Shown: positions 26,394 through 42,625 of the stretch, in pieces
How positions within the stretch are numbered: the first letter of the stretch is position 1
Layout: each line of letters begins with the position of its first letter
Assembly (NCBI GenBank): GCA_035294265.1
Contig: DATGLK010000095.1
Span: 64,326 to 128,325, forward strand
Direction: 5' to 3'
Origin: Candidatus Binataceae bacterium
GTDB taxonomy: Bacteria; Desulfobacterota; Binatia; Binatales; Binataceae
DNA length: 64,000 bases
Translations under genes and position numbers: made by a program
The notes under the pieces: model-generated
What the model was told of the DNA's origin: nothing
What the model saw: the letters and a program-made list of their open reading frames with translations, nothing else
Database searches by the model: none

Positions 26394-27818
26394 TTATTCG
26401 GCGCAACAGCTAAGTTTAGTTATGTCTTTGGTAAACGATAATGCGACGATCTTCAGCGCCTCGGACATGGTTGGATAGATGTGCAGCATGCCAACGAAGT
26501 CCTCGACCTTCGCCCCAAAGCGGATTCCCATCGCGGCTTCGTGGATTACTTCCGCCGCGTCCATGCCCAGCATCGAGACGCCCAGAACCTTGCCGCTGTC
26601 GCGCTCGGCGACCATCTTGATAACGCCGCGCGGATTGCGCACCGCCTGCGCACGTGGCACTTGCTCCATATCGACGGTACGGCAGGCGCATCGATAACCT
26701 CGCTCGACCGCTTCCTTGTCGGTCAGTCCGACCACGGCTACCTCGGGGTCGGTGAAGATGGCGCGCGGGATCACCCGATGGTCAACCTTGCGATGCGCCC
26801 CACCGAGCGCGTTAAGCGCCGCGATACCACCATCCTGGGCTCCTACCGGCGTCGCCATCTGGCTCTCCGTGTTAGAGCCGACTACATCCCCGGCGGCCCA
26901 AACGTGCGCAGCCGTCGTCTCCAACTCGTCGTTGACAATGATCGCAGCGCGCTGGTCGGTGCCCACTCCCGCCACGTCTAAGCCCAGCCCTTCAGTATTA
27001 GGAACTCGGCCCGTGGCAACAAGCAAGTGCGACGAGTGCAGGGCGCTTGAAGCATTTCCAGCTATCTCAACCAAGACACCTTCGCGATCTCTACGGACCG
27101 CCACCGCCTTGGTCCCGGTCAGGAGCGTGATTCCTTCCTCGCGCAGAACCTCGCCGAGCGTAACACCGACTTCAGGTTCATGGTTGGGCAGGATTCGCTC
27201 GCTTGGTTCGAGGATGGTCACTCGCGTGCCAAGCCGGTGAAAGAATTGCCCCAATTCGAGCGCGATATAGCCGCCACCCACAATCGTGAGCGACTCCGGC
27301 TGCTCCTTGAGTTCCATGGTTTCGTGGCTAGTCAGCAGATCGCTGGTCATGAACGGAACCTCGTCGAGGCCCTCTAGCGGTGGAATGAAAGGCCGTGATC
27401 CCGTCGCCACCAGAAAGCGTTCCGCTTCCAAGCGAACATCGCCCACCTGAACGGCGTTGCGATCGATAAACCGCGCCATTCCTTCGTATACGCTTATGCG
27501 ATCGCCGACGATGCTCTGGTATTTCTTCTCGCGATAGTAGGCGATCACCTCGTCTTTCTGGCCAACCAATTCCGCAAAGTTGACCTTAAGCCGCGCCGAC
27601 TTAATTCCCGGATAGCGCGGATGTTGCGCTTCATAAATGATGCTCGCCGCCGCGATCAGGTTTTTCGACGGGAGGCATCCGCGATTGACACAAGTACCGC
27701 CGAGGGTGCGGTTTTCCGTCATCGCAGCGGTCTTGCCGAGTTCCGCGGCACGGATGGCCGCGGCAAAAGCAGTTGCCCCCGAACCTAAAATGACCAAATC
27801 GAAGCGTCGCCTTTCCAT
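26394..27818 (-). CDS. merA: Mercuric reductase core (MerA without N-terminal NmerA domain)
   Basis: 474 aa; redox-active [19 protein letters not shown](P) Rossmann motifs; C-terminal vicinal cysteine dyad KLSCCAE diagnostic for MerA within this flavoenzyme family. Confidence 0.7.
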
Positions 27819-27885
27819 AAGTCTAAAATCCTTTTCAGCTAAGAGCGCAGTTCCAGTGAAGAGATACGAGCGCGCGCCGGCTGTC

Positions 27886-28245
27886 CTATGCTGCCCACTC
27901 CCGCCTCGTTTGAAGGGCCAAGTCGACCAAGGGTGCCGCTATGAGCAGGGCAATCCCCGGATAGGCGAGGGGATGCGAAAAGAACATTCCCGCCACCAGC
28001 AATATCGCGCCAGCCACGCCAATCCATAGCGCATAGGGACGGTGATGGCGCTGGAACGAACGCCACAAGCCCCACACGGTGAATGCCAGGAAAATGATCA
28101 GGAGCGGAAGTAGGATCGAGTCGCGGATTATAAAGCCCGCGCCGATTGCACTGACCAGCTCTATCAGCCAAGAGAAGCCGAGACAGCAAGCTGAAGCAAA
28201 GATCGCTCCAAGCGGTCCCCATTTTTCAGCATGAAACGATTTCAA
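27886..28245 (-). CDS. merT: MerT-like mercuric ion transporter (paralog 1)
   Basis: 119 aa, 3 TM; first TM carries vicinal Cys motif [11 protein letters not shown] matching MerT LASACCLGPLVL. Confidence 0.55.
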
Positions 28246-28301
28246 GCGTCCTCTCCCATAAGACCGTCAAACTCGGACTGTGGGTGCGGGAATCGGCACG
28301 G

Positions 28302-28676
28302 TCAGGGCGTGCCGGGCGCGTGGTGGCGCGTGTGTTCAATGTTGAGCTGAGTGTAAAACGACGCCGCTATCAGCAACGCCATCCCTGCGTAGGCTGCGCG
28401 TTGGTCAAAGACCAGACCGACCACCAGCAGTACGGCGCCGGTTAGGCTTATCCAGAGGTGCGTCTTCGAGTGGCTCTCGCAGGAATAACGCCACGAACCT
28501 ACGAGTGCGAAGCTCAGGCACACAGCCAGGAATGGAGCGAGAAAAACGTAGTGAACAAGAAACCCCACTCCAACGGTAGTGAGGATGCCTGTGAGCCACG
28601 ATGCGCCAAGACAACATGCCGCTGCCACGACCGCTCCGAGCGGACCCCATTTTGCCAGCGTCACCGGCGGTATCAC
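28302..28676 (-). CDS. merT: MerT-like mercuric ion transporter (paralog 2)
   Basis: 124 aa, 3 TM; AAACCLGASWL vicinal Cys motif in TM1. Confidence 0.55.
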   Translation of the reverse strand: MIPPVTLAKWGPLGAVVAAACCLGASWLTGILTTVGVGFLVHYVFLAPFLAVCLSFALVGSWRYSCESHSKTHLWISLTGAVLLVVGLVFDQRAAYAGMALLIAASFYTQLNIEHTRHHAPGTP

Positions 28677-28892
28677 GGGTCAACTCCAGTCCCTTCAAGC
28701 CACCACTGGTAATAACAAGTGCGGCAGTGAGCTGGCGGCTCGCAAACTCCGTCACGAAGCAGGCAGCCAAGTCCGCCTTCAAGGTCTCGCCCGCCGCACA
28801 ACGCACAACGCTCGCGGCGTATCCGCCGTTCAGCAGCTGCAAGTGCGTTGCCGTTTTCGAGCTGAGTGGCCATGGTCAGCGGCTCGCTGGAA

Positions 28893-29185: not shown

Positions 29186-30082
29186 TTACGCCTCGCGACT
29201 AACGCCGACTTGAAGTAAGTGACGATAGAGCACGGCTCCGGCCAGTGAACCGACCGAGCCGCCAGCAAGCGAGCCAACAACCGAGCCGAAAATCCAGCTC
29301 AGGCTTATGCCCACCGAGAACGCCCCACACTGGAGTACAATCGCCGGCAGAGTTAGGAGGACAAATACCCCGGCAGCCATCAGGCCCAGCACGACGGGGT
29401 GCCTCGGCGCCTTGATACCAACGATCGCGGTGGCAATCAGAAGCGGAGCCAGCGAATAAAGGCTCCCGAGCAGAAAGTACAAGGTCTGGCTTTGCACGCC
29501 TGCGAAGAGGTGGCGCACGCCTGGACTCATCTGGCAGTAATCCAACGCCTGGCCGATCGAGCAAGATCTGGTCAATGCCAGCGAAAGCCCCATCGCCAGC
29601 AACCCCGCGATACCGACCCATCGCGCGGCAATGCCATAGCGCGGCACTCCGCCGCCGCGCATCGCCAAAAGCACCGCAGCGGCGTACAAGGCAGCCCACG
29701 CCGCACCCATGCTCAGCAGCACTTGCGGTGAGAAGACCGTCAAATCGCTCTTTTGCCCAAGAACCCAGACTGAGGCAACTGAAAAGACCAGCCCCATTGT
29801 CACGCTCACGAGCGTCGATTTGCCCATCCGGGCGCTCTCGAGGTTCGCCTGTTCTCGCTCCAGCTCGTCCAGAACCCGCGTACGGGTTGTTTCCAAAAGC
29901 CTCGCGGGGACCTCCTCTTCGGAAAGCCCGCCCAGCGCGCGCCAGGTAAGCTTCATCTCTTGCCACGCCTGGCGGCAATTAGCGCATCCGCGCAGATGGA
30001 CCTGAAGTTTCGCCGGCATCTGAAGATTGCCATCGGCCAACGCGTTGGCCAGTTCGGTTTGAGTCTGTTCGCAGCTATTCAT
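29186..30082 (-). CDS. Anti-sigma factor, zf-HC2 type N-terminus with six-TM C-terminal domain
   Basis: N-terminal HLRGCANCRQ (H-x3-C-x2-C zinc finger typical of ECF anti-sigma factors); six hydrophobic segments downstream; 8-bp overlap with sigma factor gene. Confidence 0.6.
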   Translation of the reverse strand: MNSCEQTQTELANALADGNLQMPAKLQVHLRGCANCRQAWQEMKLTWRALGGLSEEEVPARLLETTRTRVLDELEREQANLESARMGKSTLVSVTMGLVFSVASVWVLGQKSDLTVFSPQVLLSMGAAWAALYAAAVLLAMRGGGVPRYGIAARWVGIAGLLAMGLSLALTRSCSIGQALDYCQMSPGVRHLFAGVQSQTLYFLLGSLYSLAPLLIATAIVGIKAPRHPVVLGLMAAGVFVLLTLPAIVLQCGAFSVGISLSWIFGSVVGSLAGGSVGSLAGAVLYRHLLQVGVSREA

Positions 30083-30656
30083 TGCCAGATTGACCCGCAG
30101 CTTTGTCTGGAGCGCAAAGGGCGGCGCGGAGTTGCGCCAGCGCGCGGAAAAGCCGCACCTTCACCGCTCCTTCGGAAATGCCAAGCGCCAAGGCAATTTC
30201 ACGCCCGTTGAGCCCTTGATATCGGCTGAGCAGCAGCACCTCCCGCAGGCCCTGCGGCAGTCGCAAAATTGCCGCTTGTAGCACCCTGCTGGTTTCGGTG
30301 GCCTCGGTCAGAGCCATCGGATCGGTATCCACGATCCGATGGTCTGCCGGAATCACGTCGATTGCTTCCTGGTCCATGGTCGTTTGCCGCCGGTGTTCAA
30401 CCCGGCTCTTTTCGTCTCTCAGCAGGTTGGCCGCGATAGTGAACAGAAAGGCCTTGAAAGTTCCCGCAACATAGTTCTTTCGCGCCTGGTGCAGGCGCAG
30501 GAACGTGGCTTGAAAGAGATCCTCCGCCATCGCGCGATCCCCGCTTGCACGGAGCAGAAAGTTGAACAGCCTGGTGCCATATCTCTTGAAGAGCTCGTCG
30601 AAAGCGCGGCCATCTCCGCCGGCGTATGCGAGCATCAAGTCCTCATCGTTCCGCAC
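30075..30656 (-). CDS. RNA polymerase ECF-type sigma-70 factor
   Basis: 193 aa; sigma-70 region 2 (FDELFKRYGTRLFNFLLR...DLFQATFLRL) and region 4 HTH (REIALALGISEGAVKVRLFRA). Confidence 0.8.
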   Translation of the reverse strand: MRNDEDLMLAYAGGDGRAFDELFKRYGTRLFNFLLRASGDRAMAEDLFQATFLRLHQARKNYVAGTFKAFLFTIAANLLRDEKSRVEHRRQTTMDQEAIDVIPADHRIVDTDPMALTEATETSRVLQAAILRLPQGLREVLLLSRYQGLNGREIALALGISEGAVKVRLFRALAQLRAALCAPDKAAGQSGNE

Positions 30657-30679
30657 GCTCCCTCCGCTCCTGCACCCCT

Positions 30680-30707
30680 TATAACGGGCCTGCCCGGCGA
30701 AAGTTAC
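30680..30707 (-). promoter_or_regulatory. Candidate ECF-type promoter (GGTAAC-N16-CGTTAT on minus strand) upstream of sigma/anti-sigma operon
   Basis: Reverse complement of 30676-30712 reads tgcGGTAACtttcgccgggcaggccCGTTATaag, ~20 nt upstream of sigma start codon. Confidence 0.35.
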
Positions 30708-30876
30708 CGCAGTTCAAAAACTGCACTTGTTTCGCTTAAAGATCCGTAGTCAGCCTCGGAACATTACGTTAACGGCAAATCGCAGCAAGACAAATCTAAG
30801 CTTAGATAACATTAGCAAAGCACAGACTGGGGAGTGCCTTCGTCGCCATGCTTTGGAGAGGCAGAGCTGTGCCTGC

Positions 30877-31140
30877 TCAGCTACGTCCATGGGCTCCGGT
30901 ACGCGTGGTCTTGGCATTAATCCACCGGTCAACCGCGGGGCGATAAAACCGCCAGTCGGAGCCCAACCTGAACGCCGGTAGCTCACGATGCTTGATCAGG
31001 CGATAGACCGTGCTGATATGGCAGCGCAAATAATCCGCCAGCATTTTCACGGTGAGGATTTCGTTCTTATCGCTTGGATAGACGGGGCGTGTGCGCAAGG
31101 CAGGCCGGGGCACCTTTTCATACTCATGATTACGACACAT
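30877..31140 (-). CDS. Helix-turn-helix DNA-binding protein (excisionase/HTH_17-type, MerR-superfamily-like HTH)
   Basis: 87 aa; LTVKMLADYLRCHISTVYRLIKHRELPAFRLGSDWRFYRPAVDRWI matches excisionase-type HTH; no metal-binding Cys cluster. Confidence 0.5.
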   Translation of the reverse strand: MCRNHEYEKVPRPALRTRPVYPSDKNEILTVKMLADYLRCHISTVYRLIKHRELPAFRLGSDWRFYRPAVDRWINAKTTRTGAHGRS

Positions 31141-31171
31141 AAGTCTTCTTGCTGCTTGCCTAAAATCAAAA

Positions 31172-31222
31172 CGGAATAGTCGCTTGAAAGTTACAGGCCA
31201 TGGCCTATAGTCGCTGCTCTGC
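31172..31222. promoter_or_regulatory. Repeat cluster in divergent intergenic region: direct repeats ATAGTCGCT x2 flanking perfect palindrome GGCCATGGCC
   Basis: Sequence ggaATAGTCGCTtgaaagttacaGGCCATGGCCtATAGTCGCTgct read directly; also GGTGA-N5-TCACC inverted repeat at 31231-31245. Confidence 0.3.
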
Positions 31223-31459
31223 GCTGCCCGGTGATTTGGTCACCTGAGTTCAAGCCGGCTGGCTGGGTCAGTAAAGCAGCCGATTAGACCCAAGCTCAAA
31301 ATGAAGTTGCCCCGTTTGGTCGCACGCGACCGCTTTGCCCGCGCCAAAGACCTTATTGCAGTGCGCCTTCAGACGATCGCCACAGCGCCCGCGTTTGCGC
31401 GCACGAATCCTCTTCCAGAGCGAATGTTGTGACCTGGCGGCCTCCTCTCTATCCGGTAT

Positions 31460-31486
31460 GTAACCTTCAGGCCTCATCCCCGTTCT
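31460..31486 (+). promoter_or_regulatory. Candidate ECF-type promoter (GTAACC-N15-CGTTCT) upstream of merTP-merA operon
   Basis: ggtatGTAACCttcaggcctcatcccCGTTCTtagc, 38 nt upstream of merTP start; same GTAAC-N16-CGTT spacing as the motif upstream of the ECF sigma gene. Confidence 0.35.
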
Positions 31487-31523
31487 TAGCGGATGAACCA
31501 GGCATCGTTAGGGAGTAGAAGAA

Positions 31524-32141
31524 ATGCCTTTAAAACCTGAAAGGCTTGGGTGGCTGTCGGTAATTCTGGCTTCGACCTGCTGTCTCTTCCCGCTGCTCGC
31601 AATCGGGCTCGGACTGGGAAGCATCGGGCTCGGGTCGTTTTTCGGACGGTTCGAGCCGTGGCTCGATCTGGGGGGTGTCCTAGTGGTCATCGCCGCCTGG
31701 TTGTATTTTATGCACGAGCGACGACGCGTATATGCATTGGGTTCGACCATAAAGGGCGAGCGGCGTACGCTCGTCGCGCTTTCGGTCGCCACCGTTCTGG
31801 TTGTGCTTTTTGCAGGTTCGGCATTGGTGAGTCATCTGTTGCCTCCCAGTTCGCCGATGCAGACCACATTTGCGCAGAGCGCAACCATCCGCGCCAGCGG
31901 CGCTTCCACCACCGCTAGAGTCAACTACCCGCGCGCGGTTCTCGCGGTCACAGGAATGGAGTGTTACGCATGCGTGCCAGAGATCGAGCACAGCTTGAAT
32001 AAGGTGCCCGGCGTCCATTTCGCTCAGGTGGATTTTCACCATCAGACGGTTACCGTCGAATATGACCCTGCCAAGGCGACCGCCGCTCAGTTGGTGAGCG
32101 CGGTAAAGTCCGTGGGATACGACGCCAAGGTTGCGGACTGA
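31524..32141 (+). CDS. merT: MerT-like transporter fused to C-terminal MerP-like heavy-metal-associated (HMA) domain
   Basis: 205 aa; TM1 with ILASTCCLFPLL (MerT vicinal Cys), two further TM, then HMA domain LAVTGMECYACVPEIEHSLNKVPGV (GMxCxxC). Confidence 0.6.
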   Translation: MPLKPERLGWLSVILASTCCLFPLLAIGLGLGSIGLGSFFGRFEPWLDLGGVLVVIAAWLYFMHERRRVYALGSTIKGERRTLVALSVATVLVVLFAGSALVSHLLPPSSPMQTTFAQSATIRASGASTTARVNYPRAVLAVTGMECYACVPEIEHSLNKVPGVHFAQVDFHHQTVTVEYDPAKATAAQLVSAVKSVGYDAKVAD

Positions 32142-32162
32142 ACGCTCTGTCGGAGAGGTAGC

Positions 32163-33584
32163 ATGTTGTTGGAAAGGAAAGCCAAGGGTGACTTCGACTT
32201 GTTCGTCCTCGGCGGTGGCTCGGCGGCGTTCGCCGCGGCGATTCGCGCGGCCGAGCTTGGTGCGCGCGTCGGCGTCGCCGAAGAGGGTGTTATCGGCGGT
32301 ACTTGCGTAAATCGCGGATGCGTGCCGAGCAAGAACCTGCTCTATGCCGCCGAGCGGTATTACGACTACTACAGGAATGGATTCGCCGGTTTGCCCCAGG
32401 GCAAGGAAGCGGCGAATTTCGCTCAAGTCATTGCTCAGAAGGATGACCTCGTCGAGGGGCTGCGCAAGGCCAAATATTGGGACGTCCTGGAGGCCTTTCC
32501 GCAGATCAAGTTTGTGTCCCGCCCGGCGGCGTTCGTTTCTGCCAATGAAGTAAGTGTCGGCGACCGGAAGGTCACCGCCGATCATTTTGTCATCGCGACT
32601 GGGGCGTCCGTGACGCGGCTGCCAATACCTGGACTGGAAAAGACACCCATTCTTACGTACAAGGAAGCTCTCGACCTCAAGCAGCTCCCGAAATCGCTCC
32701 TGGTGATCGGCGGGGGGCCGATCGGCCTTGAGCTTGGCCAGATGTATTCGCGCTTCGGGAGCAAGGTAACGATTCTCGAAGCTCTGCCGTATATCGCGCC
32801 ACTGGAGGACGGGGAGATCTCCGAGGCACTAAAGGCCTATCTGACAGAAGAAGGGCTTCAGGTTCTCACTTCGGTCAAGGTGACGCGGGTTGAACCGGTC
32901 GAGGGCGGTGTGCGAATCGAAGCCCTGATCGGTAGCAAGTCGGTGGATTTCTATGGCGAGCGACTGCTGCTTGCCGCCGGCCTTAAACCCAACACCCGCG
33001 ACCTCGGGCTAGACAAAGCCGGCGTCCGGCATGACGAGCGCGGAGCTGTAGTCGTTGACGACCAACTCAGGACCAGTGCGAAAAACATCTGGGCAGCGGG
33101 CGACGTCACCGGCCAAATGATGCTGGTCACGGTCTCGGCGATGGAGGGCGGGATCGCCGCCGAAAACGCGCTCGCGGGCGCTCGTAAAAGAATCGACCTG
33201 AGCCACGTGCCCCACGCGATCTTCACCTCACCGCAGGTCGCCTCGGTGGGCCTGCGCGAGCGCGACGCGAGATCTTCTGGGCGCAACATTTTGGCCGCCA
33301 AACTACCTTTCGCGCACGTGCCCAAGGCCGCCGCCGTGCGTGACACGCGCGGCCTTTTGAAGTTGGTCGTGGATGGTCGCAACTATCGGATCCTCGGCGC
33401 GCATTTGGTGGCGGCCGAGGCCGCGGATCTGATCCATATCGGCGTGCTGGCAGTTCAGCAGGGACTCACGGTCGGCGACTTGCTGCGCACCACTTTCGTT
33501 TATCCGACCCTGGCCGAGGCATTCAAGATCGCGGCCTTATCGTTCAACAAGGATGTGACCAAGCTAAGTTGCTGCGCGACATAA
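32163..33584 (+). CDS. merA: Mercuric reductase core (MerA paralog 2, no NmerA domain)
   Basis: 473 aa; [13 protein letters not shown] redox centre; C-terminal KLSCCAT vicinal cysteines. Confidence 0.7.
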   Translation: MLLERKAKGDFDLFVLGGGSAAFAAAIRAAELGARVGVAEEGVIGGTCVNRGCVPSKNLLYAAERYYDYYRNGFAGLPQGKEAANFAQVIAQKDDLVEGLRKAKYWDVLEAFPQIKFVSRPAAFVSANEVSVGDRKVTADHFVIATGASVTRLPIPGLEKTPILTYKEALDLKQLPKSLLVIGGGPIGLELGQMYSRFGSKVTILEALPYIAPLEDGEISEALKAYLTEEGLQVLTSVKVTRVEPVEGGVRIEALIGSKSVDFYGERLLLAAGLKPNTRDLGLDKAGVRHDERGAVVVDDQLRTSAKNIWAAGDVTGQMMLVTVSAMEGGIAAENALAGARKRIDLSHVPHAIFTSPQVASVGLRERDARSSGRNILAAKLPFAHVPKAAAVRDTRGLLKLVVDGRNYRILGAHLVAAEAADLIHIGVLAVQQGLTVGDLLRTTFVYPTLAEAFKIAALSFNKDVTKLSCCAT

Positions 33585-33720
33585 ACAACAGATTTAGCCC
33601 ATGATCGGCAATTGATTCGCTCGAAGGCTTGCGTACGCGCAACCGTGCTTTGCCCCCGTTGCCGGGCCCTCCTGTTCGCCTACGAATGCGCCGCGAGTGC
33701 GGCCGAGAGAGGAAGCTTTT

Positions 33721-34062
33721 ATGAGCAAAAGGATTACGATTGGGATATTGGCGCTGAGCGTCATGAGCTTGATCGCGTTGGGCGGACGCGGCGTGGCTCT
33801 GGCCGGCGACAAGACTTGCCCGCTGCAAATCAAGGGGATGCAGTGCGCGATGTGCGCGGGCGCAATCGAGGCCGCGCTGAAAGCCGTACCTGGCGTCAAA
33901 AGCGCAAAGGTCGATTACAGCTCGGCCCGCGCCGATGTCGTCGTGGACGATACGGTCCAGCCTGCCACTCTACTGGGCGCGGTTAAAAAGGCCGGCTTTG
34001 AGGCCGTTCCCCTGCCGGCGATGCCCCAAGCTCAGGCGAAGGATTCTTGCTGCAAGCGGTAG
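33721..34062 (+). CDS. merP: MerP-like periplasmic heavy-metal-binding protein (HMA domain) with extra C-terminal CC
   Basis: Signal peptide MSKRITIGILALSVMSLIALGGRGVALA; GMQCAMCAG metal-binding motif; C-terminal KDSCCKR. Confidence 0.6.
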   Translation: MSKRITIGILALSVMSLIALGGRGVALAGDKTCPLQIKGMQCAMCAGAIEAALKAVPGVKSAKVDYSSARADVVVDDTVQPATLLGAVKKAGFEAVPLPAMPQAQAKDSCCKR

Positions 34063-34071
34063 GAGACGAAC

Positions 34072-34866
34072 TTGCGCACCGTCGATTCACTGCTAGAAAG
34101 CGAGGAAGCTCGCGTTCTCCAGATTCTTTACGATGACTGGATGGACCTTCTGCGCTGCACGACCATCGACCAAGCGATGGAGCGGGTGAGAGTGCCATTT
34201 TCTCATAAAAGGCGGCTGCGCATAGCCGATCTCTTGCGGCAGGATAAACGAGCCGCGGCGCTGATGCGGTGGGATCTGTCGGCATATGTACTCACCAATG
34301 ATGAGAAGCTCTTCGCGCGCCTTATCCTGCGAGCCGCACCGTCTCTTGCGTTGATTCCCGATCCCGAGAGTCTTGGCACGGCCGCAATGGACTGGTCCCG
34401 TGGGGGTATTCCGCAAGCACTTGAGGCCCTTGAATGGGTTGGATTCTTGGAGCATGACACGGACGGCTACAAACTGGCTCCGGGCCAAGCCCGCGTAGTT
34501 AACGGCATCGGACTTAACTTCCATGAAGTGGTGCTGACCGACCGCGGCGAGCGCTTCAATACCAATTGTGCGACCGACTTCTTCATCATGACGCATCCGC
34601 CGACTCGCCAACGTGTATTGGAGCACCTCAGTTGCAAACACCTGCCGGAAATTACCGATGGGATAAGCAAAAAGATGACAGCGGCGATTCGTGCCGCCTC
34701 CGCCAGGGGACGGAGCCTTGCCCAAGCCAGCGATTATACGCGTGAGCGTGCCATCCTGAACGACGCCTGCGCGTGGACGCATGAACCCATCGGCATCGCC
34801 CTGGATTCCGGAGAATTGACCGAGGTTACGCCGGAGACAACGTGGTATCTGCGCGGCGGTGGCTGA
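34072..34866 (+). CDS. Possible organomercurial lyase MerB-like protein (divergent)
   Basis: 264 aa; segment RFNTNCATDFFIM resembles MerB active-site region (WCALDTLIF, Cys96/Asp99), second Cys in HLSCKHL; similarity weak and not verified. Confidence 0.35.
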   Translation: MRTVDSLLESEEARVLQILYDDWMDLLRCTTIDQAMERVRVPFSHKRRLRIADLLRQDKRAAALMRWDLSAYVLTNDEKLFARLILRAAPSLALIPDPESLGTAAMDWSRGGIPQALEALEWVGFLEHDTDGYKLAPGQARVVNGIGLNFHEVVLTDRGERFNTNCATDFFIMTHPPTRQRVLEHLSCKHLPEITDGISKKMTAAIRAASARGRSLAQASDYTRERAILNDACAWTHEPIGIALDSGELTEVTPETTWYLRGGG

Positions 34867-35041
34867 GGAGTCAACAATCTCTTCCGGTCGGAAGAGGCCG
34901 CAAGCTGCTGGTTCCAACGGCATCCGCAGATTGTCGCGGCCGAGAGCGGGCTGGTCAGAAAACTGTTTGGCGCCCGGATTGGCTCAAACACCCCCTAACG
35001 CTTGTCCAAAACCCATTCCCACAAGCGGAGCGAGGAGAACA

Positions 35042-35317
35042 ATGAAACAGGTACGAACCACAGGAATCATGCTTGCCGCAGCCGTCGGTCTGATGTTTGC
35101 GGCTCAGCCTGTTCTGGCGGCCGGCTCGGGTAGCACGGCGTCGCAAGCCAAGGTCAAGTGTGTAGGCGCCAATAGCTGCAAGGGGCAGAGCTCTTGTAAG
35201 ACCGCGACCAGCGCCGGACCGGGCCAGAACTCTTGCAAGGGGCAAGGCTTTATCCTGACCTCGAATGCCAAGGAGTGTCGGGAAAAGGGCGGCCATCCCG
35301 AGTCGATGAAGATGTAG
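35042..35317 (+). CDS. DUF2282-type Cys-rich signal-peptide protein (bufferin BufA-like RiPP precursor)
   Basis: 91 aa; signal peptide MKQVRTTGIMLAAAVGLMFAAQPVLAAGS; core KVKCVGANSCKGQSSCKTATSAGPGQNSCKGQGFILTSNAKECREKGG with 5 Cys in pattern typical of DUF2282 (KCyGvakaGkNdCa...sCaG...C). Confidence 0.6.
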   Translation: MKQVRTTGIMLAAAVGLMFAAQPVLAAGSGSTASQAKVKCVGANSCKGQSSCKTATSAGPGQNSCKGQGFILTSNAKECREKGGHPESMKM

Positions 35318-35333
35318 CTGAGGCCAACCCATA

Positions 35334-35660
35334 ATGAGCCCGATGAGGATCTACCGCAGAGTCGGCTTCCAAAGCATGACGAGCAACGGTCTAAGGGTGA
35401 CAATCTCCGTGATTGCTCCGCTTGCTATAGCCGCAACACTGGCCGTTGCAGTTGTGCGCTACGAGCCGGCGTCGCTAGCCGCAGGGGAAGAAGCGCAGTG
35501 TCAGCAATCCTTGCGAAACACTATGAAGGAGGCGGCAGGCCACCCCGACGGCTCGCTTGGCCGCTTATTTGCGAACGACAAACTGGCGTCACGAAGAGTG
35601 GTCGAAGTCGCGGAGGTCAACGAGCGGCTACTGCTTGCCAAATCACCCAGGTTTACATGA
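35334..35660 (+). CDS. Hypothetical protein with one predicted TM segment
   Basis: 108 aa ORF between precursor and MNIO genes; no recognisable domain; followed by ~290 bp lower-GC non-coding tract. Confidence 0.3.
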   Translation: MSPMRIYRRVGFQSMTSNGLRVTISVIAPLAIAATLAVAVVRYEPASLAAGEEAQCQQSLRNTMKEAAGHPDGSLGRLFANDKLASRRVVEVAEVNERLLLAKSPRFT

Positions 35661-35945
35661 CTTTCCTGCCGGGCGCGCGTGACGCAGGCCCTCAAAACAG
35701 ACGGATGGCAGACAACAACAGACGACGGAAGTCCGTCAGTCATCGCAATTTGCGCGTTGAACCGTAGGCTTGATGCCTCGGGAATCTCATTGGCTATTAA
35801 GAAGGCGCTCGAAGCCGACCCGTATAACCACACCCCGATCTCAACGCGCGCCCTTGAGTTAAAGGCAAGGACTTCAGAAAACTCCCTGGCTACCAAAGAC
35901 CCTGCGTCCCAAAAGGCGACAAACAGTATTAAGTGAGCTGCGGCG

Positions 35946-36833
35946 GTGTTCCGTGAACGATTTTCAGACTTGGGCTATGGCGTCGGCCTGCGCCGCGAAC
36001 ACTATAGCCACGTAACGGAGCATCGACCCGCGGTCGATTGGTTCGAGATCATCACGGAAAACTTCATGGTCGCCGGTGGCCTGCCGCTTACGGTGCTGGA
36101 AAGAGTCCGCAGCGACTATCCGGTCGTGATGCATGGCGTGTCGCTCTCGATTGGCTCGGCGGGTCCGTTAAATCGCAATTACCTCGCCACGTTGCGGACA
36201 ATGACCCACCGGTTCAAGCCGTTCTGGATCTCCGACCATCTATGCTGGACGGAAATCGGCGGGCGCAACCTCCACGATCTCCTGCCGCTGCCGTACACGG
36301 AAGAGGTTGTCCGTCATGTTGCCGGCCGCATCCGCCAGGTTCAGGACTGTTTGGACCAGGAGATCCTTATCGAGAATGTGTCCAGCTATATGACGTTTCG
36401 ATGCTCGACCATGCAGGAATGGGAGTTTCTGAGCGCGGTGGCCGAAGAGGCCAATTGCGGCATCCTGCTCGATATCAACAATGTCTACGTCAACGCCTTT
36501 AACCACGGATTCGACCCGGTCCTTTACATCGATTCGGTACCGCCCAACCGCGTGGTTCAGTTCCATATGGCCGGCCACAGCGACCACGGCACCTATCTGC
36601 TTGACACCCACGATCATCCGATCCGGGAGGAAGTGTGGCGGCTCTACGAATTGGCCGTACGTCGTTTCGGGGCGACTTCGACGTTGATTGAGTGGGACGA
36701 CAACATCCCTGAGTTCGGCGTGCTGGCCGACGCCGCCAAAGAGGCGCGCGATCGCGCGTGGAACGTGATGGCGGCGGAAACGGAAGGTGGCGATGGATCT
36801 GGCTTTGAGCGCGGGGTCTTATCGCGCGCTTGA
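35946..36833 (+). CDS. DUF692 / multinuclear non-heme iron oxygenase (MNIO; MbnB/BufB-like RiPP-modifying enzyme)
   Basis: 295 aa, GTG start; full-length match to DUF692 pattern (VDWFEIITENFM...VMHGVSLSIGS...WISDHLCW...LIENVSSYM...LLDINNVYVNAFNHGFDP...FHMAGHSD...LLDTHDHP...TLIEWDDNIPEF). Confidence 0.8.
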   Translation: MFRERFSDLGYGVGLRREHYSHVTEHRPAVDWFEIITENFMVAGGLPLTVLERVRSDYPVVMHGVSLSIGSAGPLNRNYLATLRTMTHRFKPFWISDHLCWTEIGGRNLHDLLPLPYTEEVVRHVAGRIRQVQDCLDQEILIENVSSYMTFRCSTMQEWEFLSAVAEEANCGILLDINNVYVNAFNHGFDPVLYIDSVPPNRVVQFHMAGHSDHGTYLLDTHDHPIREEVWRLYELAVRRFGATSTLIEWDDNIPEFGVLADAAKEARDRAWNVMAAETEGGDGSGFERGVLSRA

Positions 36834-37378
36834 CAACCTCCTCAGAAGGAGCGAACGGCCAACTTCATAGGGGCTCGTTCGCTCCCGAGAGAAGATCGAG
36901 AAGATTGTTCATGGAGACGCTCGCCTCGGATCGGTCGAGCGGCTGCAGATTTAGTAACCTGCCGACTTCGGCGGGCTTTTGGGACGCCTTACGGGAGGAT
37001 TACCACGTCACCTTGGCGGTGATCGGCGAGAAACGGTTGCGCACGCTGGTCGCTGCGCAACTGACCGCACATCCATCAGACAGTCCATTCGCTCTGTGGA
37101 GTCGCTAGTTTCCGCCTGGATTTCATCGCTCGCTATTCGGAGATCACGCGATGGCTTTTTCTGGGCGACCTCGCGCGGCTGGAACGAACGATGCTGGAGG
37201 TTTCCCATTGGATGCGCCACTCGCAATCGAGAATCGTTGTGGCCGGATGATGAAAACTGGAGCTGACAGGCAAGGGCAAACAGACCGCAATCCCGGAAAG
37301 GCGCCGGATGACGATTCTGGTCTGGCGGGATGATAACGAAGTGTATCGCCGGCGTTTGGAATCGAATCGGTCGAACGG
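36830..37378 (+). pseudogene. Decayed DUF2063 (MbnC/BufC-like MNIO partner) gene: frameshift, tandem in-frame stops, internal deletion
   Basis: Frame 2 (36830-37108) gives ...VIGEKRLRTLVAAQLTAHPSDSP (DUF2063 HPP motif); frame 0 (37065-37250) gives LCGVASFRLDFIARYSEITRWLFLGDLARLERTMLEVSH (DFADFL...LEWA-like) ending in TGATGA; frame 0 continues ...RMTILVWRDDNEVYRRRL (C-terminal LLVWR motif) with ~50 aa missing in between. Confidence 0.45.
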
Positions 37379-37589
37379 ATAGCGCCCGGGCCTAGTCCGG
37401 GAAGAGGCAGCCTTTGGAGCTGTCTACGAAGCTGTTGCGCCATTGTTGGGAGCCGGCGCGGTAAGACACATCAGTGCAATGCTCGCGCGTTGGTTGCGCG
37501 ATGGCCTGCTTCGGACCAGGACCAGACAGAAAACACAGTATCCGAGTAACACGATTCAGCCGCGACCTTCCGAGCACGTTTTCGCTGCA

Positions 37590-38393
37590 ATGATGAGCCC
37601 TGCCTTGTTACACTTCTGGTTCCTGCTACCTATAGGCATCATTATCGCGGCGCTCGCAATGTCGGCCGGGGTGTCCGGCGCCAGCCTATGGGTGCCGGTC
37701 TATCTGCTCTGGCTTCGGCTCAGTGTTCCGATCGCTTTCTGGCTCGGGCTCCTTACGATGCTGTTTGGCTTCGGCAGCGGCGTTTACCGGAACTGGCGGG
37801 ACCACAGCTACGACGGTCCCTTAGTTCGCCGCTATCTGGCCGCGAGCCTGCCCGCCGCGCTGCTCGGCGGATGGCTCGCGGGACTCGTCAACGAGAAACT
37901 CTTGGTCGGCCTGTTCGGCGTTTTCCTGCTCGTCTACGGCGCAACGATCGCCACGCTCACGCTGCGCGGCCTTGTCCCGGTGGAGCGCCGCCAATCCATT
38001 TCGTATCCGTTTGCGCTCATAGGCGGCGGACTCACGGGACTAATCTCGATTGGGGTCGGAATTCTCGCCATGCCGGTCGTAATGCGTCATCGCTCCATCC
38101 GCGCGCCAGCAATGGCAATCGGCTCGCTGGTGATGATCATATTCTTCACAAGCCTTGCCGCAACCATCGGCCGCCTAAGACCCAGCTTCGTTAGCGATCT
38201 TCGCCGCGATCTGCCGCAGCTTGGCGTCATCATGTTGTGGGCCGCGCCAGCCGTGGTCTTGGGCGGCCAGCTCGGACCGCGGCTCGCGCAACGCTTGCCT
38301 TCCGAGCGGCATGCTCGGCTCTACTTCAGCGCCGTGGTGTTCGCGGTCGGCATCCTAACCTTAGCTCGCGCTTACGCTGGACCTCACGGGTGA
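37590..38393 (+). CDS. TSUP family membrane protein (sulfite exporter TauE/SafE-like)
   Basis: Start at ATG 37590 (MMSPALLHFWFLLPIGIIIAALAMSAGVSGASLW...); two internally repeated 4-TM halves with G-rich motifs. Confidence 0.6.
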   Translation: MMSPALLHFWFLLPIGIIIAALAMSAGVSGASLWVPVYLLWLRLSVPIAFWLGLLTMLFGFGSGVYRNWRDHSYDGPLVRRYLAASLPAALLGGWLAGLVNEKLLVGLFGVFLLVYGATIATLTLRGLVPVERRQSISYPFALIGGGLTGLISIGVGILAMPVVMRHRSIRAPAMAIGSLVMIIFFTSLAATIGRLRPSFVSDLRRDLPQLGVIMLWAAPAVVLGGQLGPRLAQRLPSERHARLYFSAVVFAVGILTLARAYAGPHG

Positions 38394-38395
38394 AA

Positions 38396-39382
38396 GGACC
38401 ATTGATCCACGGCGTTCACGGGCCGCGTCGGATTCACCTGCTACAGATTGTTCATGGCGTCGCTCGAACTCTCGCAATTCTAGCGACCATTACGGTTTGG
38501 TTTGCGCCACTGGCTGCGGCGGGACCGCCCCTTGCGACCGCCGGACCAATTACGTTCTTCACCACGCTTCCGGTTACCATCGGGGGTTTGTTCCTATTGG
38601 ACATCACCAACCCGGCTGGTGCTACTGCGAATTCCGCCATCCAACAGGGACATGGGTTTTCGCTGGGCGAGACCCTCGATATCGGATACGGCGTTACGCC
38701 GAAGCTCCAACTGTTCGCGCTGATACCGTGGTTCGTGCACAAGTCACTCGCTCAAACCGCGTCCAACGGGACTCATACGAGCTCCGGATCTAACGGCTTC
38801 GGCGACACGCTGTTCCTGGCGCGGTATACGCTGATCGGCTTCGAGCACGCGGAATCCGCACTCCGCATCGCGCCTATCGCGGGCCTCAAAACGCCCACGG
38901 TGATAAGCGATACAGGGTTCAGCAAAATTCCGCGCCCGCTCCAGCCGGGATCGGGAACGTGGGATCCGTTGTTCGGCCTGACGCTCGTCTGGCAGACGCT
39001 GGATTGGGAGTTCGATGCGGACGCCGGCTATCGCATTAACACCACGGCTGGACACTTCCGTTTCGGTAACCAAGTGTTCGCCGACGGATCAGTTCAGTAC
39101 CGTCTGTGGCCCTTTCAAATCGGAGCCGGCAACCCAGGCTTCATCTACGCGACGCTCGACAGCAACTTCTTCGGACAAGGTAAGAACCGGGTCAACGGAC
39201 GCGCCGATCCGGATTCCGGCGGTTTGCTCTGGTTTTTGGATCCAGGAGTCCAGTATGTTACCGAGCGCTACGCGTTGAAGGCCGCGGCACAACTGCCGGC
39301 GCTCGAAGCCCCCAACGGCAGCGCTCCGTCGCCGGACTATGCTGTGTTTGTCTGCCTGCGCTTGAACCTCTCGTTGCCCTGA
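38396..39382 (+). CDS. Secreted hypothetical protein, outer-membrane beta-barrel-like (start codon unresolved)
   Basis: Signal-like ARTLAILATITVWFAPLAAAGPP; alternating amphipathic beta-strand pattern; a 166-bp piece of this gene is duplicated at 43570-43735. Confidence 0.4.
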   Translation, partial: GPLIHGVHGPRRIHLLQIVHGVARTLAILATITVWFAPLAAAGPPLATAGPITFFTTLPVTIGGLFLLDITNPAGATANSAIQQGHGFSLGETLDIGYGVTPKLQLFALIPWFVHKSLAQTASNGTHTSSGSNGFGDTLFLARYTLIGFEHAESALRIAPIAGLKTPTVISDTGFSKIPRPLQPGSGTWDPLFGLTLVWQTLDWEFDADAGYRINTTAGHFRFGNQVFADGSVQYRLWPFQIGAGNPGFIYATLDSNFFGQGKNRVNGRADPDSGGLLWFLDPGVQYVTERYALKAAAQLPALEAPNGSAPSPDYAVFVCLRLNLSLP

Positions 39383-39830
39383 CCCCCCTTCCGATAAAGG
39401 TTCCATCAGTTCGCTCGCCACGCGTCCTTTGCGCCGTCCATGCTCCTAGCTGGGTTTGCCTGCTGGCCGGTCTTCCAGTTCGAGACCATCCAGAATCGGA
39501 AACGTATCGATCGTACCGCCCTTCGCACAAGTCGCCATCAGGCGCGTTAGAGTCTTCTTCGTAGCCAGCTTCTATTTTTTCGTCGAGGCTTCTGATCTTT
39601 TCCTCGGCTTGCGCCCGCACGGGCTTGCTTCGAGTTTCGAATCTGGTTGTAGCTCCCGAAGTTCTTGATCTCGTTCAGCGAAAAGCCGAAGGCCTGAACA
39701 CGACGCTTCTAATCCGCGCCCCAGTCAAGACGTGGCATCACCGCGATCCATACGATGGCGCTGATTAAAACCGCGACTCCGTCTGTAGTGAGGATTTCTG
39801 CAATAAAATGTCGTATTGGAGAGAGGCTCT

Positions 39831-40661
39831 CTAATACCAAACGCGTGTGCCGAAGATGAAGCGAGGATCGTTGACGATTCCGCCTTCTTCGCGCGTAAAC
39901 CGAGCAGTCTCGCCGAATGTCTGGGTGTAAGCGAAGCCGATGTAGGGCGCGAACTTGCGGCTAATTTCGTAACGGATGCGCACTCCCGTATCGAGATCCG
40001 AGAGCCCCGAACCGATACCGCGACTCGGATCATTTGTGTTGTAGAAATTGACTTCGAACTCGGGCTGCATAATCAGCCGATTGGTGAGCAGCAGGTCGTA
40101 CCATCCGGTGACTTTTCCGGCGAAGCGGCCCCGGTCGCTGAAGTAGAAGGTCGGCGCGAATTCGAAAAAATACGGAGCCAGTCCCTCGATTCCGACCGCG
40201 CCCCACGTCATTCCAGGATTTGAGTCAAGGTCGTAACGAACTCCGGCCTGGAAATCGAAGTATCTGAGATAGGGTATCGGTCGGTCATAGAGCGCCTCGG
40301 TGTCGCCATCGGTGGCTACGCCGTGTTCAGCAAAGCCTTCGGATTTGAACCACAGTTTGTTCATGTCCGTCCCGATCCAACCCTCGCCATCCCAACGAAA
40401 TTCATTGTCTGGACCGTTAGTGCGCCCTTCGAGCTGATCGAAGAGGATATGTCCGAAAATCTGATTGTCCATCACCGGAGGTTCCTCTTCTTCCGGACTT
40501 GTAACGCCGGAATTTTGAGTGGTTGTGGCGGTCGATTGCGCATTCGTGACCGAAGGCGCTAAAGCAATCAAACCGACAAGGACGAGGATGAGCATCAAGG
40601 CAGATGCCGAAGCCGAATCGAATTCCGCGGTGCTCTCTCGCCCGGCTGTCGTCGTCCTCAT
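39831..40661 (-). CDS. copB: Copper resistance protein B (CopB/PcoB outer membrane protein)
   Basis: Start at internal Met overlapping copA stop (ATGA); signal peptide, Met/acidic-rich N-terminal region, C-terminal beta-barrel ending ...FIFGTRVWY. Confidence 0.75.
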   Translation of the reverse strand: MRTTTAGRESTAEFDSASASALMLILVLVGLIALAPSVTNAQSTATTTQNSGVTSPEEEEPPVMDNQIFGHILFDQLEGRTNGPDNEFRWDGEGWIGTDMNKLWFKSEGFAEHGVATDGDTEALYDRPIPYLRYFDFQAGVRYDLDSNPGMTWGAVGIEGLAPYFFEFAPTFYFSDRGRFAGKVTGWYDLLLTNRLIMQPEFEVNFYNTNDPSRGIGSGLSDLDTGVRIRYEISRKFAPYIGFAYTQTFGETARFTREEGGIVNDPRFIFGTRVWY

Positions 40662-42625
40662 GACACGATCACCGTGCGGAACATGCCAGCCTCCATGTGA
40701 TAGAGCAGGTGGCAGTGATAAGCCCACTTACCCGGCGTGTCGGCGCTGACCAAATAGCTAAGCCGTTCGCCCGGCTTGACATTGATCGTGTGTTTGTAAG
40801 GGCGCCACTCGCCGTTGCCGTTTTCCAGCTCACTCCAGAGCCCGTGGAGATGGATCGGATGCTCCATCATGGTGTCGTTTACGAGGATGATGCGTACCCG
40901 TTCTCCCAGCTTCAACCTGATCGGCTCGGCGCTGGAGAATTTCTCGCCGTTGAACCCCCAGATGAACCGTTCCATGTTGCCGGTTAGATGCAGCTCGATC
41001 TCGCGATTGGGGGGCCGCAGATCGGTCCCGCGGTAACGGGCGCGCAAGTCAGCATAGGTCAGTACGCGACGACCGTTGTCATCCAGTCCGTTCCCAGGCT
41101 CGGCGAGCCGCTCCGTCGGCCTCATCGCGACGTTGTCCACTTGTGGACCCTCACGCAGCGTAATTGGCTTGGGCGGTGTCGGCTTTCCAGCGATCGCCGG
41201 GACCGACGGACGGGTCGTGTTAGGGCTCGGCTGCGGGAAGGGCACCTCCCCATAGCCGTCGCGCCTAGCATTGACTGTTCCCACTGCCGACGGCGTCGAG
41301 GGTGGTTTGGCCTCCATCTTCATCCTAGGCCTGTCGCCCATCGCCATGCCCGACATGTTTCCCAGCCCCATGTCCACCATCGTGAGCAGCGGGCGGGGAT
41401 CCATTGGTGGCACCGGAGCGGTCAAGCCGCGTCGCGGCGTCAGCGTTGCGCGCGCGTAGCCGGTGCGATCCTCCGACTGCGCGAAGATCGTGAAGGCCGA
41501 CGCATCTGGGGGCTGCACGATCACGTCGTACGTTTCGGCGACGGAGATTCTGAATTCGTCGACGATGACCGGCTCGATATCATTGCCATCGGTTTGCACC
41601 ACCGTCATCGGCAAGCCCGGGATCCGCACGTCAAAGATGGTCATCGAGGAGCCGTTGATGAAGCGCAGCCGCACGCGCTCGCGCGGCTGAAAAAGTGCCG
41701 TCCAGTTGGCGGCTGGCGGCTGTCCGTTTATCAGGTACGTGTAAGTCGCTCCGCTCACGTCCAAAATATCCGTGGGGTTCATGTTCATGCGGCCCCACAT
41801 CAGGCGGTCTGATATCGTCGCGCGGAGACCTTCTTTGCGAACATCGGAGAAAAAGGTGCCGACGGTGCGCTGATGGTAATTGTAGTAGTCGCTCTGCTGC
41901 TTGAGATTGCTGAAGACGGCCTCAGGGTCTTCATCCGTCCAGTCCGAGAGCAGGATCACGTACTCGCGGTCGTACTCGATCGGATCCTCGACCTGAGGAT
42001 CTATAATGATCCCGCCGTATAGTCCGGTTTGCTCCTGAAAGCGGCTGTGGCTGTGGTACCAGTAGGTGCCGTGCTGCTTGACTGGGAAGCGGTAAACGAA
42101 GGTTTCGTTTCGCGCGATTCCCGCAAAGCTTAGACCGGGGACGCCATCCATGTCCGATGGTATCCGGAAGCCGTGCCAATGAATCGACGTGTCGACCGGT
42201 AGGTGGTTCGCGACCGAGATGGTTACCGTGTCGCCTTCCCGCATGCGCAGTATTGGCCCCGGTACGAAACCGTTGACCGCAGTGGCAACAGACGGACGAC
42301 CAGTGAAATTCACCGGGGTTTGCTCGACAACGAGATCGAAGCTGTTGCCGGAAAGCAACGGTGGCCCGCTGGCGGTTTTCTGTGCCAGGGCGGGCAATCT
42401 TGACAGGTCCAGGCTCGCGATCACTCCGCCGGCGAGCACTCCTTGAACGAAGCGCCGGCGGGTGATTCCTCGGGAAACCCGATCGCGGCTTCCGCGGGAC
42501 GCCGACAGGAGTCCGTCGCTAATAGTGTCAAATGACGTCAGACGGACCTCCAATCTCGATTGAGCAACCAGCGTGAGGGCGGGCTTGTGTTCGCACCCGC
42601 CGACGCCGAATTTCGTCCGAGGCAA
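40658..42625 (-). CDS. copA: Copper resistance multicopper oxidase CopA/PcoA
   Basis: 655 aa; Tat motif RRRFVQGVLAGG; cupredoxin copper ligands HWHG, HSH, HCHLLYHMEAGMF; Met-rich loop; N-terminal ~55 codons overlap a transposase remnant so true start uncertain. Confidence 0.8.
   Translation of the reverse strand: MPRTKFGVGGCEHKPALTLVAQSRLEVRLTSFDTISDGLLSASRGSRDRVSRGITRRRFVQGVLAGGVIASLDLSRLPALAQKTASGPPLLSGNSFDLVVEQTPVNFTGRPSVATAVNGFVPGPILRMREGDTVTISVANHLPVDTSIHWHGFRIPSDMDGVPGLSFAGIARNETFVYRFPVKQHGTYWYHSHSRFQEQTGLYGGIIIDPQVEDPIEYDREYVILLSDWTDEDPEAVFSNLKQQSDYYNYHQRTVGTFFSDVRKEGLRATISDRLMWGRMNMNPTDILDVSGATYTYLINGQPPAANWTALFQPRERVRLRFINGSSMTIFDVRIPGLPMTVVQTDGNDIEPVIVDEFRISVAETYDVIVQPPDASAFTIFAQSEDRTGYARATLTPRRGLTAPVPPMDPRPLLTMVDMGLGNMSGMAMGDRPRMKMEAKPPSTPSAVGTVNARRDGYGEVPFPQPSPNTTRPSVPAIAGKPTPPKPITLREGPQVDNVAMRPTERLAEPGNGLDDNGRRVLTYADLRARYRGTDLRPPNREIELHLTGNMERFIWGFNGEKFSSAEPIRLKLGERVRIILVNDTMMEHPIHLHGLWSELENGNGEWRPYKHTINVKPGERLSYLVSADTPGKWAYHCHLLYHMEAGMFRTVIVS

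Follow-up and report, generated by a model that had tools for sequence, protein, structure and literature searches.

No other known group of peptides made by MNIO (DUF692) enzymes is as large as the bufferins, and experiments have so far tied these only to copper. Both described kinds, Buf1 (DUF2282) and Buf2 (BUF_6/12Cys), are peptides of the periplasm that copper induces and that contain 5-thiooxazoles derived from cysteine (PMC11626156). Modification of Buf1 needs both the enzyme BufB and its partner BufC and does not need DoxX; the central cysteines of Buf2 carry −4 Da shifts, and a DoxX gene is absent from buf2 in Caulobacter (PMC11626156). A 2025 survey found six cysteines in 90% of Buf2 precursors and sigma/anti-sigma genes in Buf1 and not in Buf2 clusters, and a published suggestion of a mercury role already exists, for MerC-bufferin fusions (PMC12452194). 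Our whole-word literature search linked bufferins with mercury solely in that fusion work and its preprint, and no paper of the library searched brought MerA or mercuric reductase together with a bufferin or with DUF692. Here we describe a bufferin gene set within a mercury-resistance (mer) operon. It lies in a 64,000-nt stretch of DNA (the window; positions 64,326 to 128,325 of the forward strand of contig DATGLK010000095.1) from a Candidatus Binataceae bacterium (assembly GCA_035294265.1).

An original prediction, made from the letters of this stretch and its open reading frames (ORFs), had placed at 35042–37378 a bufferin-type module of a ribosomally made and post-translationally modified peptide (RiPP), embedded in a mer cluster and accompanied by a decayed DUF2063 partner gene. 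It also called a mercury role undescribed for bufferins; the link is indeed little described, though the MerC-bufferin fusions had already prompted the suggestion. Our reading, to which we give a probability of about 0.6, is that a Buf2 gene set has been built into the mer operon of one Binataceae clade, that the intact system most plausibly buffers Hg(II), and that the copy in the window is damaged.

Bufferin-2 genes within a mer operon

The first gene of the module encodes a 91-residue product with a signal-like N-terminus and five cysteines, as predicted. Its assignment to DUF2282 did not survive: there was no match to PF10048 at E ≤ 1, the sole match being a weak one to DUF7640 (22 bits; curated cut-off 28.1), and the product matched NF050166 BufA2 instead, at 77.1 bits (E = 9e-22, profile positions 2–77 of 79; curated cut-off 60). 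By these models the precursor is a BufA2, of the Buf2 (BUF_6/12Cys) kind, and not a Buf1 peptide. Read by eye, its N-terminus consists of a basic MKQVR, a hydrophobic stretch and VLA/AG, and this segment is conserved across homologues. The intact, full-length MNIO gene expected 630 bp downstream is there: its product scores 374 bits against NF050167 MNIO_BufB (curated cut-off 310) and 362.9 bits against PF05114, and all His-, Asp- and Glu-containing motifs looked for are present. With both family models passed, the module is of bufferin type, as had been proposed.

The precursor core holds five cysteines, not six or twelve. CysIV is replaced by Gly-Pro, with AGPG standing where NSCKG is expected (...SAGPGQNSC...). 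When aligned with six-cysteine (6-Cys) relatives, a five-cysteine (5-Cys) subclade shows S-x-GPGQNSC where those relatives have N-S-C-K-GQNSC; among the top 120 homologues, the set that our cysteine counts cover, 17–18 belong to it. The 5-Cys form is a sequence variant outside the published description of "6 or 12 Cys".

For comparison, we collected loci (numbered with the prefix L) and precursor relatives (prefix P); the P0004 group comprises L083–L090, 16 contigs from several samples. Upstream of bufA2 in the window stand a merTP-like gene, merA, a gene for a MerP-like protein and a merB-like gene, and bufA2 starts 43 nt after the true stop of the last of these, with a ribosome-binding site present. 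The merA product scores 508.4 bits against TIGR02053 (curated cut-off 454.45) and is 86% identical to its orthologue in L083, with a ratio of nonsynonymous to synonymous substitution rates (dN/dS) of 0.09. The merTP-like product reaches 73 bits against NF033556 MerTP_fusion (curated cut-off 180), has a clear HMA domain and is 54–55% identical to the L083 orthologue; TIGR02052 MerP scores are 43–47 bits, below the curated cut-off of 92.55, again with clear HMA domains. Together with the MerB-like protein, confirmed at the profile level (see below), the MerA score bears out the predicted placement of the module inside a mer cluster.

The arrangement extends well beyond the window. The closest relatives of the precursor are P0004 (76% identity), P0002 and P0003, and the gene order that these relatives and L099 have in common starts with extracytoplasmic function (ECF) sigma and anti-sigma genes on the minus strand and continues with merTP-like, merA, HMA, merB-like, bufA2, bufB and bufC. 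The relatives' bufC genes are intact (271–281 aa, with PF09836 or HvfC-type matches), and in the P0004 group the genes after bufC are tauE, one for an outer-membrane protein and a merR in convergent orientation. DNA identity of the relatives to the window is 72–82% over the whole block. L095 and L096 have the same merB-like/bufA2/bufB junction, and the gene order is kept in at least four to five diverged lineages (72–92% nucleotide identity). On these alignments mer embedding is a conserved property of one clade and may have been gained once or twice. That a free 5-Cys BufA2 belongs as a fixed part to a merTP-merA-merB-like operon is a point that we count as new.

Within the 8–10 kb around 5-Cys bufA2 genes that our context checks reached, a second 5-Cys lineage (L091–L094) has merR-merC-merA-HMA 5 kb upstream of bufA2. 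No mer genes were found near the ∼100 6-Cys Buf2 loci examined. Among species-representative genomes, nearly all of the 80 nearest MNIO loci come from Binataceae or "delta proteobacterium" metagenome-assembled genomes (MAGs). A precursor of identical sequence is on record from a Candidatus Binataceae MAG.

Two details of these loci deserve a separate mention. L091–L094 carry a single 606-aa fusion of an MNIO (PF05114) with DUF2063 (e.g., L091 10611–12431), with DoxX upstream and a DUF3703 gene downstream. The MerA-like neighbor of L051 and L106 was rejected as a MerA; it scores 409 bits against the required 454 and is a PRK06370-type flavoprotein.

Lineage-specific damage and a seemingly constrained enzyme gene

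Because the sister loci have an intact bufC and a short spacer, the long spacer of the window, the decay of its bufC and the fragmentation of its merR are lineage-specific changes. Judged by these comparisons, the locus was reshuffled in its own lineage and is a damaged copy of a conserved operon. The orphaned MNIO, the extra ORF and the insert had been predicted as features of the system; they are better seen as damage of this lineage, given sisters with spacers of ∼25 bp and an intact 281-aa BufC.

The sequence of the partner gene is that of a true pseudogene. Intact BufCs used as tblastn queries aligned over residues ∼10–100 to 36812–37087 in one frame and over residues ∼100–270 to 37089–37517 in another frame with stops. 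Base-level alignment to the intact 281-aa L083 orthologue, our reference for the decay, places the ancestral ATG at 36793 and identifies eight indels: −5 nt (∼36810), +2 (∼36887), +1 (∼36992), +1 (∼37088), −28 (∼37208), −53 (∼37249), +5 (∼37356) and +1 (∼37395). Three stops stand in the ancestral phase, TAG at 36952–36954, TAA at 36955–36957 and TGA at 37251–37253, the last within TGATGA (37248–37253). The predicted fragments and TGATGA stop are thus both found, while the predicted deletion of ∼50 aa comes to 81 nt (27 aa) lost in the two large deletions, and the remnant pieces lie in three frames, not two. Read in the ancestral phase, the remnant has 57% amino acid identity to L083 BufC with a dN/dS of 0.40; PF09836 recognizes only a 39-aa piece of it, at 19.6 bits.

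The spacer between bufA2 and bufB measures 630 bp in the window and 25 bp in L095 and L096. DNA alignment with L083 and L087 breaks exactly at 35317 and 35948, and L083 has 29 bp there. Comparison of the inserted DNA with the rest of the window and with ∼95 loci (blastn, tblastx) gave no similarity, and an Rfam scan of 30000–40000 at E ≤ 1 gave no match. A search for repeats and inverted repeats around the insertion returned neither terminal repeats nor a target duplication, and hence no sign of a transposable element. The extra 108-aa ORF that had been predicted in the spacer exists, with no homologue except itself among 5.8 billion proteins; the ∼290-bp low-GC insert predicted alongside it amounts to a slight dip (GC 0.55–0.57 versus 0.58–0.60 in the flanks). 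GC content at third codon positions is 0.64 and 0.59 in the two orphan ORFs, compared to 0.65–0.75 in real genes, and their codon-position pattern is weaker. The second of them, of 85 aa, lies in the frame of bufB, with a TGA and three codons before the GTG at 35946. We judged this shared frame a coincidence and note it given the apparent decoding of TGA as selenocysteine nearby (see below).

The insertion removed the original ATG of bufB, which now starts with a GTG where its relatives have codon 2. The gene is otherwise clean: its 888 bp hold no disrupting lesion, where neutrality would predict ∼11, compared to 11 observed in the 846-bp bufC alongside. By our arithmetic, which assumes independent lesions, the Poisson probability of a lesion-free bufB is ∼1e-5 if the gene had been neutral for equally long. 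Its dN/dS against L083 is 0.17, compared to 0.40 in the adjoining bufC remnant and 0.09–0.20 in the mer genes. Using L096 as the outgroup, we counted 15/25 replacement/silent changes in bufB on the window branch and 11/27 on the sister branch (p = 0.48), with no significant relaxation. The lack of lesions beside the 11 in bufC, the lower dN/dS and the lack of a replacement excess are evidence, at the level of sequence, that bufB remains constrained after the loss of its neighboring partner; we count this as new. The precursor gene is similar, with a dN/dS of 0.18 against L083, no disrupting lesion in its 276 bp and replacement/silent counts of 5/13 on the window branch versus 9/9 on the sister branch (branch test not significant; no relaxed selection seen).

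Two or three buf2 loci per genome occur in several Binataceae MAGs (L004/L017/L036, L044/L050, L043/L054 and L059/L067), and in at least 13 related bufA2-bufB loci bufB has no adjoining bufC. Taken together, these make it plausible that BufC is supplied in trans, from elsewhere in the genome. The loci without an adjoining bufC are L124, L139 and L169, and L003, L016, L026, L038, L039, L048, L050, L061, L063 and L065; there, a glyoxalase-family gene and/or a GNAT gene (∼366 aa) comes after the MNIO gene. A GNAT-like ORF of the same kind stands after bufC in many other Binataceae loci.

Function and alternative explanations

By analogy with the studied systems, BufB and BufC would convert the central cysteines of BufA2, three of them in the 5-Cys variant, to 5-thiooxazoles in the cytoplasm. 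The Sec pathway would then export the modified peptide, which would buffer a sulfur-loving metal in the periplasm. From the operon context, that metal would most plausibly be Hg(II), possibly also Cu(I), and the same context suggests that the bufferin acts beside the MerP-like protein, before uptake by MerTP and reduction by MerA. Since BufC is required in the studied system, thiooxazole formation from the window locus alone would be unlikely. The BufA2 of the window may be matured with BufC from another buf2 locus, or the module may be in the course of being lost.

Several observations weigh against this reading. Of the 5-Cys lineages examined, about half (L007, L013, L054, L100, L104, L105, L109, L113, L124, L139 and L169) lack mer genes within 8–10 kb. 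Having five cysteines and being linked to mer are therefore separate traits, and we rejected a rule by which all 5-Cys precursors would be mer-linked. The mer-embedded arrangement may go back to one ancestral event in one clade, and L099 lacks tauE and the outer-membrane protein gene. In print, the hint of mercury for bufferins is limited to MerC fusions, and no experiment ties a bufferin to Hg. The copper genes copA and copB stand 0.5 kb beyond the cluster, keeping copper a candidate metal. As for the damaged copy, the GTG start of bufB has no obvious ribosome-binding site by eye, which makes its expression uncertain; the branch test has low power, such that a recent loss of constraint in bufB would escape it; and tblastn, in a search limited to the 64-kb window, found neither a second MNIO nor a second BufC.

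It is possible, if on the unlikely side, that the bufferin serves copper and that its place among the mer genes comes from sharing a metal-resistance island and ECF sigma regulation with them. All experimental work shows copper induction and copper binding, copB and copA are adjacent in the window, and ECF sigma genes lie upstream of many mer-less Binataceae Buf2 loci. Against copper stands the build of the operon itself, in which bufA2 lies on the same strand so close behind the merB-like gene, with conserved genes after it, in an order that the diverged lineages have kept. Moreover, copAB is not in the conserved block of L083–L090.

We consider it rather improbable that the whole buf module is a dead relic, non-functional since the loss of bufC, with bufA2 and bufB intact for want of time. 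The need for BufC in the studied system favors such a relic, as does an insertion that took both the ATG of bufB and its close coupling to bufA2; merR has decayed too, and BufB deviates from the consensus in 3 of the 99 columns that are ≥95% conserved, where its relatives deviate in 0–7 (median 1). What speaks for continued use is the unevenness of the damage, with eight indels and three stops in bufC and none in the adjacent bufB and bufA2, and the absence of any excess of amino acid replacements on the window branch.

Plain thiolates might also suffice. Hg(II) binds to thiolates very strongly, and an unmodified 5-Cys BufA2 could bind it as MerP does, making BufC, and perhaps BufB, dispensable in a mercury context. 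The state of bufA2 would fit, as the gene is intact and unrelaxed, has its ribosome-binding site and follows directly behind the merB-like gene. However, this would leave the intact bufB unexplained, and sister lineages in the same mer context keep both bufB and bufC intact; modification is evidently selected there, which makes an unmodified peptide a distinctly unlikely explanation.

We also considered the 92-aa ORF at 36830–37108, which begins with a TTG overlapping the stop of bufB (TTGA), as a shortened DUF2063-only partner still serving BufB. Short DUF2063-like partners are known for other MNIOs (PMC12452194), and the ORF has a weak PF09836 match (E = 0.0012). We rejected it as highly improbable: it is pieced together from segments in and out of phase, with codons 36888–36992 out of the ancestral phase and displacing the conserved ...ERLQIYATAYFHRL... 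segment (the DUF2063 core), it has neither the first 12 residues nor any of the RRE half, and MNIOs with signal-peptide precursors have full-length partners (PMC12452194). Finally, that bufC is really intact and its decay an artefact of assembly or sequencing is barely credible, even for a source that is a MAG, since the window is 100% identical to two further assemblies that retain the decay (MEGAHIT-style ENA contig k141_768964, over 20.9 kb, and a Logan contig of SRR5579875, over 7.5 kb; reads possibly shared), showing that the lesions are not the product of one assembler, and since 11 separate lesions, including deletions of 28 and 53 nt and three nonsense substitutions, are atypical of short-read errors and sit between clean flanking genes.

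Returning to the mercury reading, a bolder version can be put forward only tentatively. A 5-Cys Buf2 subclass would have been recruited in Binataceae as a fixed mer component, serving as a periplasmic buffer of Hg(II) or organomercury that hands the metal to MerTP and MerA, beside a selenocysteine MerB-like lyase; BufB would in addition be kept under selection without an adjoining BufC, via partners shared among buf2 loci. In either version, conserved bufferin genes as ordinary members of a mer operon allow a mercury role to be put to the test on a concrete example. A dead partner beside a clean enzyme gene is a natural experiment on which MNIOs work without a partner or with a shared one.

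A candidate selenocysteine-containing MerB-like lyase

The merB-like ORF runs for 264 aa to a TGA at 34864–34866, and the frame stays open from there to the TAA at 34996–34998. A profile of the MerB-like family (86 representatives) matched the PDB entries of MerB2 (5c17, E = 3e-12) and MerB (3f2g, E = 8.5e-5). In the profile alignment, C166 and D169 fall on the MerB motif CALD, and the TGA codon falls on the Cys of SFCSHVHFF, the second catalytic Cys. We take the MerB cysteines so aligned to be Cys96 and Cys159. PF03243 is matched by 23 of 29 family members, and reading through the TGA lifts the score of the window protein from 12 to 25 bits, still below the curated cut-off of 27.

At the same codon, L083, L096, L099 and L177 have TGA, and L095 has TGT (Cys). 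The 43 codons past the TGA (GVNNLFRSEEA..W..HP..) are conserved in L083, L096, L099 and L177, the last a 48% identical homologue. Family members with a Cys continue as CGVNxLF...W..HP, and ∼16 of 28 end at GGG. An invariant hairpin, CTCTTCC-GGTC-GGAAGAG (34879–34896), begins 12 nt past the TGA and is identical in L083, L096, L099 and L177. The gene thus probably encodes a selenocysteine-containing lyase of 308 aa. Membership in SaoL was considered and rejected, there being no match to NF040728. The probable selenocysteine MerB-like gene, which we also count as new, would add to the few selenoproteins implicated in the handling of mercury.

Flanking genes

The features of the region are collected in Table 1. 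The ECF sigma factor scores 92 bits against sigma70-ECF (curated cut-off 42.9), its partner matches weakly as an anti-sigma N-terminus, and the pair is divergent from the mer-buf genes; such a pair also stands upstream of the cluster in L083–L086 and L099. Elsewhere, ECF sigma genes lie divergently upstream of the Buf2 loci L018, L024, L029, L033, L040, L041, L046, L047, L050, L052, L056, L057, L060 and L065 and of many of L101–L175, in contrast to the 2025 survey, which placed sigma/anti-sigma genes in Buf1 and not Buf2 clusters. The HTH_17 gene has no counterpart at this place in L083; a 45% identical homologue occurs in L091 (10371–10589), flanked by bufA2 and the bufB-bufC fusion, and its presence there hints at a small regulator that recurs at these loci. 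A promoter scan gave one sigma-70-like site (31184–31211), and terminator-like sites were not above expectation.

Table 1. Positions of the mer, buf and neighboring features in the window
Feature	Position	Strand	Basis or remark
Second MerA	26394–27818	−	TIGR02053, 520.4 bits (454.45)
Two small merC-like membrane genes with CC motifs	27836–28741	−	PF03203 MerC
Multi-pass anti-sigma factor (29186–30082) and ECF sigma factor (30075–30656)	29186–30656	−	NCBIfam
Excisionase-type HTH_17 gene	30877–31140	−	Between the ECF sigma gene and merTP
merTP-like; membrane MerT-like part with CC motif fused to an HMA domain	31524–32141	+	NF033556, HMA
merA; core mercuric reductase without N-terminal HMA, C-terminal ...SCCAT	32163–33584	+	TIGR02053
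Small exported HMA-domain protein, MerP-like, GMQCAMC motif	33697–34062	+	PF00403, 50 bits
MerB-like lyase gene, probable selenoprotein, 308 aa	34072–34998	+	Family profile; TGA 34864–34866, TAA 34996–34998
bufA2; bufferin-2 precursor, 91 aa, 5-Cys variant	35042–35317	+	NF050166 BufA2
Lineage-specific insertion of ∼0.6 kb; orphan ORFs 35334–35660 (108 aa) and 35679–35936 (85 aa)	35318–35945		DNA alignment
bufB; MNIO (DUF692) bufferin maturase, 295 aa, intact	35946–36833	+	NF050167, PF05114
bufC pseudogene (DUF2063 + RRE partner)	36793–∼37560	+	tblastn with intact BufCs; base-level alignment to L083
TauE/SafE (TSUP) membrane permease	37590–38393	+	PF01925, 98 bits
Putative outer-membrane protein	38390–39382	+	Related to the L091 PF13557 (Phenol_MetA_deg) protein
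merR remnant, helix-turn-helix half absent	39479–39705	−	tblastn, DNA alignment
copB and multicopper oxidase copA	39831–42625	−	copB ∼130 bp beyond the merR remnant

Downstream of bufC, the tauE orthologue keeps the same position in L083–L089 at 89–90% identity. The original prediction had pointed to a TSUP/TauE gene in place of DoxX as a novelty. The gene is as described, and a tblastn search of the window with a DoxX protein found nothing; the novelty falls away, the absence of DoxX being normal for Buf2. For the outer-membrane protein, there was no direct Pfam match to the window protein itself, and its L083 and L085 orthologues are 46–50% identical to the L091 protein. The intact 142-aa MerR of L087 finds three short pieces in the window by tblastn, covering residues 54–131 only; by DNA alignment the 5′ half of merR is lost, and the gene is intact in L085, L087 and L089. 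The region is a composite metal-resistance island: copAB lies outside the conserved block in the sister loci L083–L090. The two merC-like genes are absent from the otherwise collinear L083 and were gained relative to it, as was the HTH_17 gene.

Comparison with known systems

With the classical mer operons (merR-merT-merP-merA-merB), the window shares MerA, a MerT-like/HMA transporter, an HMA periplasmic protein and a MerB-like lyase, with MerR in sister loci. It differs in a MerA without NmerA, in a very divergent MerB-like protein that probably contains selenocysteine, in a fragmentary merR, and in an operon that holds an inserted RiPP module and tauE. SaoL (NF040728; PMC13188914) likewise has a MerB fold and a selenocysteine and is encoded in a metal-handling cluster; the window protein is unmatched by its model, has the motif GGG-U-G rather than CU, and has mer and buf rather than sao neighbors.

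Among bufferin systems, the Buf1/gig operon (DUF2282-DUF692-DUF2063-DoxX; Cupriavidus, Legionella, Caulobacter) shares the logic of enzyme plus partner and induction by metal stress, whereas the window has another precursor family (no PF10048), no DoxX and another genomic context. The MerC-bufferin fusions share the link between a bufferin and a mercury-resistance gene, together with a suggested handling of metals other than copper; in the window the precursor is a free, putatively exported 91-aa protein, and the link is membership in an operon with merTP, merA and a merB-like gene. The bufA2-bufB2-bufC2 operon of Caulobacter vibrioides (PMC11626156) has in common a precursor of the BufA2 model with a putative signal peptide, a BufB-type MNIO downstream, a DUF2063/RRE partner, the lack of a DoxX gene and ECF sigma-linked control. 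Whereas that operon stands alone and its precursor has six cysteines, the window has a five-cysteine precursor embedded among mer genes, a dead partner gene and a 0.6-kb insertion.

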